A stretch of 20,273 nucleotides of DNA from Acidobacteriota bacterium (lineage in GTDB: Bacteria; Acidobacteriota; Thermoanaerobaculia; UBA5066). The stretch lies in assembly GCA_016789625.1 (NCBI GenBank), contig JAEUQS010000195.1, positions 1-20,273 on the forward strand, written 5' to 3'. A program made the position numbers and the translations under genes. The notes under the pieces were generated by a model, which was not told where the DNA came from, made no database searches, and saw only the letters and a program-made list of their open reading frames with translations. Shown here in pieces: positions 2,701-19,537 of the stretch. Position 1 is the first letter of the stretch, and each line of letters opens with the position of its first letter.

Positions 2701-3781
2701 CGCGGCTTGCGGGTCCTCGCGGCGGGATCCGGCTCTCCGGACTCGAAGTGGTCGAACCCTGCGTCGGGCAGGGGTTCCGTGCGCGCGCCCCCGCGCACCA
2801 CGACGGAGGAGCCGGGCGTCATCTCGCCGATGGCCCGAAGGGCGAAGCGGGCCGCGAGCCGCTCCACGGCAGCGAGCCTTTTCTTCGGCACCGTGAAGAG
2901 GAGACCGAAGTCCTCTCCGCCGAAGAGCGCCGCCGCGCGTGGCTCGAGCGCGATGCCCGCGGGCAGCTCCTCGAGGGTGGAGTCGACGGGGAGGCGGGCC
3001 AGGTCCACGGCCGCACCGCAGCCCGAAGCGCGGCAGAGGCGGTGGAGGTCGCGAGCGAGCCCGTCGGAGAGGTCCATCGCGGCCGACGCGACGGGCGCGG
3101 TGTCGCCCTCGGCGAGAGCCTGTCCGAGCTCGACCATGGGTCGCGGGCTCGTCTGGTGCCGGATCAGGCGAACCAGGTCGGCGGCGGGTGGGGCCACGAG
3201 CCGCCGGCCCGCCGGGTTGGTGAGCGTTCCGCTCGAAGAAACCCGATATCCCGCTTCGAGGAGCGCGAGGCCCCCGGCTGCGGCGCCCAGCGTTCCCGAG
3301 ACGAAGAGGACGTCGCCGGCCGAGGCCCCGCTCCGGGTGAGGACGCGCAGGCCCGCGGGACGCCCGACGGCGGTCACCGAAAGAAACGCCGTTGCCGAGG
3401 ACGTGAGGTCTCCGCCCACGATCGCGACCTGGTACTCGGCCGCGATCTCCCCGAAGCCGTCCAGGATCCCCTCGAGGAAAGCCGGCGGGGTCGCGCGCGG
3501 AAGACCCAGCGTGAGGAGCGCGAAGGCAGGCGCCGCGCCCATGGCCGCGAGGTCCGAGAGGCTGGCGGCCAGCGCCTTGCGGCCGAGAGCGTGCGGATCG
3601 GAAGTCGCGCGGAAGTCCACGTCCTCGACGAGCGTGTCGGTCGTGAGCACCGCGTCGCCCCCGAGGCGCACCACGGCGGCGTCGTCGCCGACCCCGATCC
3701 GCACGTCGCGCCGCCGGGTCGCGAAGCGCGTCGCGATCAGCTCGAGGAGCGCGGCCTCGCTGGGGAGCGTGGGCTTGGATC

Positions 3782-3785
<4 letters not shown>
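2697..3785 (-). CDS. thiL: Thiamine-monophosphate kinase (ThiL, PurM-like AIR-synthase-related fold).
   Basis: 362 aa. The N-terminal GVGDDAAVV...TTDTLVEDVDF motif and the C-terminal Gly-rich ATP-binding region are typical of ThiL. The start ATG overlaps the lon stop (ATGA at 3782-3785). Confidence 0.8.
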
Positions 3786-6219
<2,434 letters not shown>

Positions 6220-15532: not shown

Positions 15533-15817
15533 TCCTCAACCTTGCCGCGGCTCCGCCCGTTCCGGGCTTCGCACCCGAAAGGAGGAATGGTGTCCTTCCC
15601 TGTGCCGGGTGTGCGCGGGGCAACAGACGCCTCGAACAGTCACGACATCACAGTCGATCCCACCGGGCCGGCGGCGCCGGCGGTCTCTGACCGCACGGCG
15701 TTCCGCGCACGGGTTCTGACGAAGGTGGAATCGAGATCGCGAGACGAGGCGCCCGGGGTGGGCGCGAAGCGTCGCGGCGCAGCGGCCTTTGGGGCGGGTT
15801 CGACTCCCGTCGTCTCC

Positions 15818-15890
15818 GTGCGGGTAGCTCAATTGGCAGAGCACTGGACCAAGGATCCAGATGTAGCGGGTTCGAGTCCCGCCCCACCAC
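15818..15890 (+). tRNA. tRNA-like element, possibly a tRNA pseudogene or remnant.
   Basis: A canonical D-arm (TA-GCTC-AATTGGCA-GAGC), a 5-bp anticodon stem CTGGA/TCCAG with loop CCAAGGA, and a T-arm GCGGG-TTCGAGT-CCCGC are all readable. The acceptor stem, however, pairs only 3/7 in my hand fold, and position 33 is C, which is non-canonical. A second T-arm-like copy (GCGGGTTCGACTCCCGTC) lies at 15794-15811. Confidence 0.4.
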
Positions 15891-17417: not shown

Positions 17418-17508
17418 CCCTCGAGGGATCGCGTAGGATTCCGGCACTGCTGGTGTGGCTCCGGGCGGTTCGCCCTCCGCACCTCAATCCGTTTCGAAGA
17501 GGTGCCCG

Positions 17509-18039
17509 ATGGGAACTCCGATCACCGCGAGGAACGTGGCCAGCGCCATCTCCGTCGCCTGGGCGAACGGCCTCAACTGCTATTCGTTCGCGGCCAAGTG
17601 CAACAACCCCGGGGGCGCGGGCGCCGTGGCGTGTGTCCCCGGAGCGCGGGCCGGGGCGCCCGTGACCTCGGCGGGCATCACGATCACGAACCTCTTCCAG
17701 GCCTGCGTGGCCGACGGCTTCGAGGACGTCTCGGGCGGAGCGCTCGGCATCGCGCACAAGATGAAGACGCTGCCGGTCTGCGGCCCGGGCGAATACCTCG
17801 TCGCCGTGTTCTACGACACGCGCCGCTCGTTTCACTTCGCGCGCCAGCTCGCCGACGGCACGGCGCAGGCGCGGGAGTGGGTGCACAAGCCCTCGGCGGC
17901 GCAGGACGCCCACAACATGCAGAGCGCCTACTTCCTGGGAACGGACATCAGCAACGTGCCGTGGCTTCCGACGTTCCAGTTCGTCGGGTATCTGAAGGCC
18001 CCGAATGCCGGCGTCACCGTCAATCGGGGCGCGTTCTGA
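17509..18039 (+). CDS. Hypothetical Cys-containing protein (176 aa), possibly secreted.
   Basis: ATG at 17509 is preceded by GAAGAGG. The weakly hydrophobic N-terminus ends in AWA. The motifs GLNCYSFA...VPGAR and the later His residues faintly resemble a papain/transglutaminase-like Cys-His arrangement, but there is no firm family assignment. Confidence 0.55.
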   Translation: MGTPITARNVASAISVAWANGLNCYSFAAKCNNPGGAGAVACVPGARAGAPVTSAGITITNLFQACVADGFEDVSGGALGIAHKMKTLPVCGPGEYLVAVFYDTRRSFHFARQLADGTAQAREWVHKPSAAQDAHNMQSAYFLGTDISNVPWLPTFQFVGYLKAPNAGVTVNRGAF

Positions 18040-18049
18040 CGGGGTCGTC

Positions 18050-18637
18050 TCAGAAGTCCTTCTCGGGAACGTAGGGCCGGCTCCAGAGAGCCACCTGGAG
18101 GAGCACGGACTTCACCCAGGCCTGGTGCATGCGCTCGACGTCCTCGGGCGCGTGGCCCTTTTTCGCGAGGAACGGCTTCAGCGTCGTGGTGATCGGGTAG
18201 ACGAAGAGCGGCATGTAGCGGTACGAGACGACGTCCACCGACGCGACGCCGTCCGTCCTGTTCTTCGCGGCGCGCGTGTGGCGGCGGCCGATCTCGTCCT
18301 GGTAGTCGAGCCAGGTCTGGTCGTAGCGGGCCTCGGCCGTGTCGAGGATCCACTGCGCGAAGCGCTTGCGCACCGCGGCGAGGTACGCCGCGTCGGGCTG
18401 GCCATCGGACTTGCGGCCGAAGAAATGCACGAGGTGCGGGTGCGACGCCACGAAGCCGTACCAGACGTCCAGGATCGCGTCGGTCTGGTCTGCCAGGATC
18501 CCTTTCGACATCCGGAGAGCCTTCTCGTCGTCGGCCGTGAACAGCACGGCCTTCTTCATGAGCTCGAGCTCGGCGGGTGTACTGGGGGAGCGGGGAACGG
18601 CGGCCGTTCCGTACGTGTATCCGGGGATCTTCTCCAT
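18050..18637 (-). CDS. Single-domain protoglobin (195 aa); an alternative upstream ATG at 18724 adds a 29-aa Sec-signal-like extension.
   Basis: It matches archaeal protoglobins along its full length in the hallmark segments KIPGYTYG, WYGFVASHPHL, YLAAVRKRFAQWILDT, YDQTWLDYQDEIGRRH (proximal His), YPITTTLKPFLAKKGHAPEDVERMHQAWVKSVLLQVALWSRPY. Its length equals the 195 aa of MaPgb/ApePgb-type proteins. The Shine-Dalgarno AAAGGAAAG precedes the ATG at 18637, and the upstream ATG at 18724 also has a GAAAGGAG Shine-Dalgarno. Confidence 0.8.
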   Translation of the reverse strand: MEKIPGYTYGTAAVPRSPSTPAELELMKKAVLFTADDEKALRMSKGILADQTDAILDVWYGFVASHPHLVHFFGRKSDGQPDAAYLAAVRKRFAQWILDTAEARYDQTWLDYQDEIGRRHTRAAKNRTDGVASVDVVSYRYMPLFVYPITTTLKPFLAKKGHAPEDVERMHQAWVKSVLLQVALWSRPYVPEKDF

Positions 18638-18797
18638 CGTCTTTCCTTTCGTCGGGGGAGCGGCCTCGAGGGCCAGAGACACGGGCAGCGAGGCGGCCAG
18701 TGCCGCAAGCGCGAAACGGTTCATGCAGGGAGCTCCTTTCGGGAGATCGGCGGGATCGAGCGGTTTCAGTACAGTCTTCGAAGTAGTTTGGACGGGA

Positions 18798-19490
18798 TCA
18801 GCCCGCTATCGAGGTGTCTTCCTCCTTTCCGTTTCCGCGGAAGCGATCGAAGACGGCCCGCGCTTCCGCCGCGGGCAGCGCGTCGTGATCGCCGCAGTCG
18901 AGCCTCAGATCGCGGCCGCCGAGCGGCGCGTCCACGTAGGCACAGTGGTGGGGGCGCGGCTCCCCAGGGTGCGCGCGGGGGCGGAAGAAGCGGCAGGTGA
19001 CACAGACCCGCGCCGGGGCGATGCGGCCCTCGGTCTGCAGGGTGTGAACCATGGTCACGAGGCTCACGAGGAAGACCTCCTGCTCCGCGGGCCGAAGGGC
19101 GTCGACGGCCGAAGCGAGGACATCGGGGGCCTCCGTGACGCGCCCCGCGAGCTTTCGCCCCTCGCGGGTCGGCACGAGCGCGACGGCGCGCGCGTCGTCG
19201 GGGGAAGCGGTCTTCTCGACGTAGCCCTTGGCGACGAGCGTCGAAACGGCCGCGCTGGCGGTCGCCGGCGTGACGGCCAGCTCTTCGGCCACCTGGGAGA
19301 GCCGCGCCGGCGCGCTCGCTCGCGCGAGGTGCGAGAGGATCTGCGCCTGGGTGGGGGATAGCCCTTCGGGACCCGCCGTCTGCCAGGCCTCGGCCTTGAG
19401 CGCGATCGCGAGGCGCGAGAGGCCGGAGCGGATGCGGGCCTTCAGGTCCGCTTCCCGGGGTTCGGGCTTTCTCCGGCGTCGGGCACTCAT
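18798..19490 (-). CDS. MarR-family transcriptional regulator with a C-terminal Cys/His-rich, putatively metal-binding extension.
   Basis: 230 aa from the ATG at 19490. The winged HTH is LSPTQAQILSHLARASAPARLSQVAEELAVTPATASAAVSTLVAKGYVEK...RAVALVPTREGRKL. The C-terminal 70 aa contain CVTC...HHC...C-G-D-H. The 457-aa ORF is rejected as a fusion with antisense sequence. Confidence 0.8.
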   Translation of the reverse strand: MSARRRRKPEPREADLKARIRSGLSRLAIALKAEAWQTAGPEGLSPTQAQILSHLARASAPARLSQVAEELAVTPATASAAVSTLVAKGYVEKTASPDDARAVALVPTREGRKLAGRVTEAPDVLASAVDALRPAEQEVFLVSLVTMVHTLQTEGRIAPARVCVTCRFFRPRAHPGEPRPHHCAYVDAPLGGRDLRLDCGDHDALPAAEARAVFDRFRGNGKEEDTSIAG

Positions 19491-19505
19491 AGTTAGGACT
19501 CCGAA

Positions 19506-19534
19506 ATAATGATCCCGGCCGGGGTCCTTGTCAA
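19506..19534 (-). promoter_or_regulatory. Sigma70-like promoter for the MarR gene (TTGACA-N17-CATTAT), with an 11-bp palindrome over the -35.
   Basis: The minus-strand -35 TTGACA lies at 19534-19529 and the -10 CATTAT at 19511-19506. A GGAG Shine-Dalgarno sits 9 nt before the ATG at 19490. The palindrome ccttgtcaagg at 19526-19536 overlaps the -35. Confidence 0.45.
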
Positions 19535-19537
19535 GGG

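Follow-up and report, generated by a model that had tools for sequence, protein, structure and literature searches.

A predicted Sec signal peptide on a single-domain protoglobin of an acidobacterium, and similar presequences in related proteins of several phyla

Can a globin of the protoglobin (Pgb) family reach the bacterial periplasm? The question is raised by a gene on the minus strand of contig JAEUQS010000195.1 of an Acidobacteriota bacterium (assembly GCA_016789625.1), within positions 1 to 20,273 of the contig, the whole stretch of 20,273 nucleotides that we analysed and call here the window. Globins of bacteria are regarded as proteins of the cytoplasm, and no physiological role has been known for the protoglobins since they were discovered. 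An earlier note, made from the letters of this stretch, had read the gene as an archaeal-type single-domain protoglobin, possibly with a Sec signal peptide encoded between an upstream in-frame ATG and an internal one. We find that the product of this open reading frame (ORF) is a bona fide single-domain protoglobin, that its predicted signal peptide is strongly supported by the comparison with orthologues, and that the long form is probably made and exported.

The family assignment rests on several comparisons. The ORF scores 116.1 bits (E 2e-33) with the protoglobin profile PF11563, whose cutoff is 25, and covers positions 3-156 of the 158 in the profile. The comparison with archaeal protoglobins gave E values of 1.1e-75 for that of Methanosarcina acetivorans (MaPgb, PDB 2VEB) and 7.5e-58 for that of Aeropyrum pernix (ApPgb). 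As the note had claimed, the core of 195 residues (aa) has the length of the archaeal proteins, residues 29-224 of the query aligning end to end with residues 2-195 of the 2VEB chain at ~58% identity over the complete core, and the four motifs that it had listed are all there (EKIPGYTYG, WLDYQDEIGRRH, KPFLAKKGHAPED and LQVALWSRPY). In the alignment to 2VEB, the proximal His149 (F8) and the distal Trp88 (B9), Tyr89 (B10), Phe122 (E11) and Phe174 (G8) have as counterparts His120, Trp60, Tyr61, Phe93 and Phe145 of MaPgb; the first four positions are invariant columns in our homologue alignment A1, and that of Phe174 is a Leu in some homologues. An AlphaFold2 model from 17 homologues gave the globin a predicted local distance difference test score (pLDDT) of 85-98, with residues 1-31, which lie outside the fold, staying below 50, and the best Foldseek matches of this model were MaPgb entries, with template modelling (TM) scores of 0.91-0.92 and a root-mean-square deviation of 1.9 Å (2VEB, TM 0.92). 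Profile, MaPgb match, model and haem-pocket residues thus bear out the call of a single-domain protoglobin, for which a search of NCBIfam found no family. A globin-coupled sensor was ruled out by the stop codon directly after the globin domain and the lack of a C-terminal transmitter domain; sensors such as HemAT, AfGcHK and GsGCS belong to the same S-globin lineage and match the fold (TM ~0.8), but they carry C-terminal output domains of their own.

The label archaeal-type holds as a family match, since the window protein shares with MaPgb and ApPgb (7UTE) the N-terminal IPGYTYG segment, the F8, B9, B10, E11 and G8 residues and the predicted fold, but it loses its value as a surprise. Single-domain protoglobins are abundant in Bacteria, with at least 4519 proteins at E<=1e-20 and at least 588 confirmed genome loci in many bacterial phyla, so that a protein of this type in a bacterium is ordinary. 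Reviews also place the family in both bacteria and archaea (PMC7475203). Cytoplasmic forms are the majority among the at least 588 genome matches, and those of Bryobacterales, Nitrospira and Chloroflexota (193-198 aa) resemble the window protein in family and core (65-76% identity) and, in many cases, in having a MarR-like gene upstream. The difference lies at the N-terminus: a presequence is missing from the archaeal proteins, which are cytoplasmic, and a hydrophobic one from the cytoplasmic bacterial forms, whereas the window gene, in a diderm host, has 29 additional N-terminal codons with a signal-peptide design. A further difference from MaPgb and ApPgb is that it adjoins a gene for a MarR-like regulator with a Cys4His2 motif.

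The upstream extension of 29 codons reads MNRFALAALAASLPVSLALEAAPPTKGKT, and both this sequence and the layout attributed to it by the note, with an n-region, an h-region and the SLA|LEA end, are present in the DNA. The n-region MNR has a net charge of +1, the h-region FALAALAASLPVSLAL comprises 16 uncharged residues whose Kyte-Doolittle sum (33.6) ranks near the top of 23 presequence forms, and two candidate cleavage sites, SLA|L and LEA|A, satisfy the -3/-1 rule. Other designs were discarded in the window protein: cleavage at A-A|P is excluded by the Pro at +1, a lipoprotein processed by signal peptidase II by the absence of any Cys in residues 1-35 and of a lipobox, and a signal for twin-arginine translocation (Tat) by the single Arg (MNRFAL) and the absence of an S/T-R-R-x-F-L-K motif.

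Such features have to be weighed against another reading, in which the gene encodes an ordinary cytoplasmic protoglobin that starts only at position 18637, the 29 upstream codons being an untranslated, Ala/Leu-rich open leader in a genome of 70% GC (the window itself has ~70%). High-GC open frames readily give hydrophobic peptides, 7% of random open ATG stretches passing our own rule for signal peptides, and initiation at the internal ATG yields an exact canonical protoglobin of 195 aa. This is also the form deposited at NCBI for the gene (MBL8112216.1, 195 aa, labelled 'protogloblin ApPgb'), where the internal start was used and the presequence is in this way hidden from the public annotation; gene calls in Logan and JGI data include 224-aa members in the same 90% cluster as MBL8112216.1. 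With respect to translation signals, the upstream ATG was said to have the better Shine-Dalgarno (SD) sequence, and its AAGGAG, 8 nt away, is indeed the stronger one (a scan of the long start returned AGGAG at spacing 8), although the internal start cannot be called clearly inferior, as it has an SD-like AAGGA of its own 6 nt from its ATG. The pattern of divergence also speaks against an untranslated leader. The closest genome locus, L001, from an uncultured metagenome-assembled genome of Holophagales with 97% protein identity, differs from the window at 3 sites in the 29 codons, all three in third positions and all synonymous, whereas the non-coding DNA just upstream diverges faster, with 10 differences between -93 and -35 and none from -35 to the ATG. 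In the GC content of third codon positions (GC3), the extension reaches 0.76 and the core 0.93, against 0.50 for the 90 nt that precede the extension.

The strongest argument for a presequence comes from the relatives. We compared 80 related species-level loci, translating the in-frame upstream regions and scoring candidate starts by a rule of our own, which passes 7-8% of random ATG-initiated open stretches. A presequence started by ATG was found in 21 of the 80 loci, plus one more locus truncated at its contig end, with an SD sequence 5-9 nt upstream in nearly all of them. The number of residues ahead of IPGY is bimodal, with 27-38 in the presequence loci and 4-11 in all others. The presequences are mutually unrelated in sequence, and each shows a K/R n-region and a hydrophobic core of 11-20 residues, with canonical cleavage sites in the orthologues (AQA|, SQA|, ASA|, VFA| or AMA|). 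Within Acidobacteriota the carriers include Vicinamibacteria and Bryobacter, and in other phyla Hydrogenophaga, Rhizobacter, Rubrivivax and other Burkholderiales, Ca. Nitrotoga, Cyclobacteriaceae, Ohtaekwangia, Myxococcota and Bdellovibrionota. The GC content of their loci ranges from 0.38 to 0.74, so the presequence is no artefact of high-GC open frames. Moreover, none of the 16 non-acidobacterial carriers has an in-frame start between the presequence and IPGY, and therefore their whole product must carry the presequence. Among the acidobacterial relatives with an open extension, all 11 of 11 showed signal-peptide features in unrelated sequences, where ~8% would be expected. These observations, together with the many low-GC relatives that have a presequence and no internal start, make an exclusively cytoplasmic product of the window gene unlikely.

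The same presequence design was seen in 15 further metagenomic homologues, and full-length presequence forms exist in RefSeq for Hydrogenophaga sp. 5NK40-0174 (WP_353395605.1, 221 aa) and Ca. Nitrotoga sp. M5 (WP_239255650.1, 226 aa). A search of representatives at 50% identity, which compresses the conserved family to a few clusters plus many fragments and is used here for variants only and not for a family-wide presequence frequency, revealed versions with a lipobox (P0121, ...FLAAC; P0133, ...LPGC) and a fusion of signal peptide, hydrolase and protoglobin (P0167). In P0130, P0146 and P0167 an alpha/beta-hydrolase-like N-terminal domain is fused to the protoglobin, in proteins of ~490-540 aa, of which P0167 also has the signal peptide. 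We set one candidate presequence aside as a false positive of our rule, that of locus L021 (TTG start, no SD sequence, 74 residues). A side observation concerns P0002, a Logan contig of 975 bp, where the ~90 first residues are near-identical to the window protein and the sequence after about residue 90 is of the 'STPELV...KTG(K/E)PD' subtype found in P0105; this is probably an assembly chimera or a recombinant of two protoglobin subtypes.

A neighbour-joining tree of the protoglobin cores separated the presequence forms into two groups, a large one drawn from many phyla and a small one of Bryobacter, the latter nested among presequence-less Bryobacterales. The nearest neighbour of a presequence form is also a presequence form in 19 of 23 cases, a figure reached by none of 2000 label permutations, and a clade of proteobacterial, Bacteroidota and Bdellovibrionota presequence forms (with at most 2 forms without presequence) appeared in 89 of 100 bootstraps. 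This pattern indicates that the trait is heritable and maintained, with more than one gain or loss being probable. When the window protein was included, monophyly of the signal-peptide forms as a whole was not supported by the bootstraps.

On the other hand, the acidobacterial genes keep a second possible initiation site. In the window it consists of GAAAGGAA followed by the internal ATG, and its occurrence there is hardly what the codon usage of the contig would give: AAA makes up 8.7% of the Lys codons and GGA 13.8% of the Gly codons, the AAA-GGA pair is thus expected at ~0.012, and AAGGA-N4-9-ATG has 0 occurrences in the 12.5 kb of other coding sequence of the contig. An element of this kind (GAAAGGAA, AAAAAGGAA or GAGGAG, then ATG or GTG) was retained by 10 of the 11 presequence forms from acidobacteria and is absent from all 16 non-acidobacterial ones. 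In L005 it is read as E-R-K and not as K-G-K, a different codon register which indicates that the conservation acts at the nucleotide level, and it is identical to the ribosome-binding site in the 5' untranslated region of presequence-less sister genes such as that of L010. From its conservation and this identity, the acidobacterial genes look like cytoplasmic protoglobin genes that were extended upstream with the ancestral initiation site retained. The retained start would be either a relic or the source of a second isoform; that periplasmic and cytoplasmic isoforms are produced from one mRNA by alternative initiation is a possibility that we raise only tentatively.

Under the interpretation that we prefer, translation from the upstream ATG would give a precursor of 224 residues whose first ~18-21 residues would act as a Sec-type signal peptide. 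SecYEG would carry the unfolded precursor across the inner membrane, and signal peptidase I would cut after SLA or LEA to leave a mature protein of ~203-206 residues, which would fold in the periplasm of a diderm, Holophagales-like acidobacterium and take up haem b there. With His149 and the Trp/Tyr/Phe distal site in place, this mature form is an ordinary protoglobin, from which the binding of O2, NO or CO and a reactive-nitrogen/oxygen chemistry like that of MaPgb in vitro are to be expected. Its most likely role would be the periplasmic binding or scavenging of small reactive ligands, with co-expression with, and probable control by, the adjacent MarR-like Cys4His2 regulator. Any specific physiological role, which we draw from the neighbouring genes and from the in vitro chemistry of the archaeal homologue, is held with much lower confidence than export. 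An analogy for such a route is offered by cytochrome b562 (CybC) of E. coli, a soluble protein with b-type haem that reaches the periplasm through Sec and also combines a Sec signal peptide, export as apo-protein and non-covalent haem b acquired after export. The likeness ends there, as CybC is an electron carrier with an unrelated four-helix bundle fold and the window protein is a globin of the gas-binding type.

Two other fates of the long form can be considered. An uncleaved signal-anchor, which would keep the globin tethered to the inner membrane and facing the periplasm instead of soluble, would fit the window's cleavage motif, weaker than those of the relatives and with Glu20 inside the c-region, and the lipobox versions are membrane-tethered extracytoplasmic variants within the same family; however, an h-region of ~16 residues followed by small residues at -3/-1 is what cleaved signal peptides show, and the canonical A-x-A sites of the orthologues come directly after h-regions of 11-20 residues, so that we consider this outcome very unlikely. 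Export through Tat as a folded holo-protein would agree with the frequent Tat routing of exported haem proteins and with the RR in the n-region of two homologues (P0041, SRRAAV; P0026, ARRLTV), but it is highly improbable for a protein with a single Arg (MNRF) whose orthologues mostly have K, KK or a single R in short n-regions and no S/T-R-R-x-F-L-K.

Several points weigh against export of the window protein through Sec. The scoring of signal peptides rests on a crude, home-made rule with the 7-8% background given above, the n-region of the window has one basic residue only, and neither SLA|L nor LEA|A is as canonical as the AQA sites found in the relatives. A plausible internal SD sequence and ATG are retained, and the NCBI annotation has the 195-aa product only. 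In the tree, the window joined the supported presequence clade in just 4 of 100 bootstraps, and its presequence may therefore be a separate, younger acquisition. The avoidance of Cys, a residue present in 0 of 23 predicted exported forms against 35 of 58 others (p 1e-6), was rejected as independent evidence for a periplasmic location, since close relatives without presequence are also Cys-free and the signal is confounded by phylogeny. Finally, Tat is a frequent route for proteins with cofactors, and a twin-arginine motif is missing from the window protein; haem b would then have to be acquired after export, and no route for its acquisition was identified in the contig.

The genomic surroundings of the gene (Table 1) offer some hints about function. 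The MarR-like protein encoded upstream carries a C-terminal Cys4His2 motif, C163-x2-C166 ... H181 H182 C183 ... C199, invariant among its homologues (alignment A2). Searches of Pfam and PDB gave no match to its C-terminal part, and the protein is a candidate sensor of the metal, Fe-S or redox type. Homologues of this protein are encoded no more than 6 kb away from the protoglobin gene in 35 of the 80 loci, from many phyla (the Cys4His2 loci include L005, L008, L009, L016, L034, L057, L064 and L065), and in 33 of the 80 the MarR-like gene is upstream and on the same strand, mostly within ~350 nt. They are also found beside 3 of 4 further metagenomic protoglobin loci. A variant regulator with CxxC...C...CxxH is placed divergently in L081-L083.

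Table 1. Features of the protoglobin locus, in window coordinates.
Feature	Position	Strand	Details
Protoglobin precursor ORF	18050..18724	-	224 aa; coordinates include the stop codon
Protoglobin core	18053..18637	-	195 aa; alignment to 2VEB
Predicted Sec/signal peptidase I signal peptide, codons 1-21	18662..18724	-	heuristic features, pLDDT, L001, orthologues
Long start ATG	18724-18722	-	read in sequence
Shine-Dalgarno-like GAAAGGAG	18733..18740	-	8 nt 5' of long start ATG
Internal ATG	18637-18635	-	read in sequence
Internal SD-like GAAAGGAA (18650-18643) plus in-frame ATG (18637-18635)	18635..18650	-	sequence; NCBI start
MarR-like regulator	18798..19490	-	230 aa; Pfam MarR_2, E 4e-14; 73 nt upstream of the protoglobin gene, same strand
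Sigma-70-like promoter match TTGACA-17-CATTAT	19506..19534	-	10/12 consensus; 0.1 expected in shuffles; pattern match only

A scan for consensus promoters found no sigma-70-like match in the 73-nt gap between the two genes, and the match located 5' of the MarR-like gene, a pattern match only, overlaps an imperfect palindrome at 19508-19529. Our search for a shared operator returned only this palindrome and three copies of GATCCCG in the two regulatory regions, two at or in the gap (18751-18757 and 18793-18799, minus strand) and a third one inverted, inside the palindrome (19511-19517, plus strand). GATCCCG may be an operator half-site; in the window overall it is not enriched (14 observed against 8.9 expected).

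Other neighbours recur in other loci of the set. A peroxidase-related AhpD-like protein (TIGR01926, CxxC, ~180 aa, no signal peptide) is encoded by a same-strand neighbour of the protoglobin gene at 10 loci from other phyla, without exception presequence forms (L020, L024, L029, L033, L048, L053, L057, L058, L063 and L077). A divergent RclR-like AraC regulator was seen at 8 loci, of which 7 have signal-peptide forms, and a divergent, small HxlR/RrpB-like regulator lies upstream of 18 protoglobin genes, none with a presequence (among them L012, L021, L023, L025, L027, L031, L036, L040 and L041). These neighbours point to redox or oxidant stress, which is compatible with the chemistry of MaPgb, for which nitrite-reductase and peroxynitrite-isomerase activities were described in vitro (PMC4020757).

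The rest of the window contains ordinary chromosomal genes, for Lon, NrdR, Hsp20, a ThiL-like protein, an aminotransferase and an SPFH protein, and between the last two a tRNA-Leu(AAG) was detected at 15817-15890 (plus strand; ARAGORN, Rfam). A convergent ORF of 194 aa at 17455-18039 (plus strand, GC3 0.89) stops 10 nt from the stop of the protoglobin gene; it is 98% conserved in L001 and has no Pfam or NCBIfam match. L001 itself contains at 2946-5153, between the XRE-cupin and MarR-like genes, an extra ORF of 735 aa with a hydrophobic N-terminus, absent from the corresponding window gap (19491-19537), a strain-level insertion or deletion.

The note had considered that an exported protoglobin would be unusual, and this assessment stands, with export and not the family as the surprise. 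A full-text literature search, which left subscription journals mostly uncovered so that a prior mention is possible, found no report of a protoglobin that carries a signal peptide or resides in the periplasm; where the terms occurred together, spot checks showed protoglobins merely in protein lists, and a broad globin review made no mention of signal peptides or the periplasm. The presequence protoglobins are a widespread and apparently undescribed group. A related case is the bacterial globin of Vitreoscilla (Vitreoscilla haemoglobin), once proposed to be periplasmic, a location now considered a probable artefact (PMC3962134); it differs from the window protein in having no signal peptide, whereas the window gene encodes a predicted one.

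If the export described here is real, a gas-binding b-haem globin would be present in the periplasm across many phyla. The periplasm is the place where nitrite, NO and oxidants are first met, as well as the site of terminal oxidases and nitrogen-cycle enzymes, and an exported globin would raise the question of how haem b is delivered there. In this line, the presequence clade gives hypotheses of function that can be tested, with Hydrogenophaga sp. 5NK40-0174 and Ca. Nitrotoga as cultured carriers, and the linked Cys4His2 regulator of the MarR type is a candidate for a new sensor of redox state or metals. There is also a lesson for annotation, as homology-guided start calling hides presequences, the 195-aa call at NCBI being an example. 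Finally, if both isoforms were made from the acidobacterial genes, they would illustrate how signal peptides may arise by 5' extension of a cytoplasmic haem protein.

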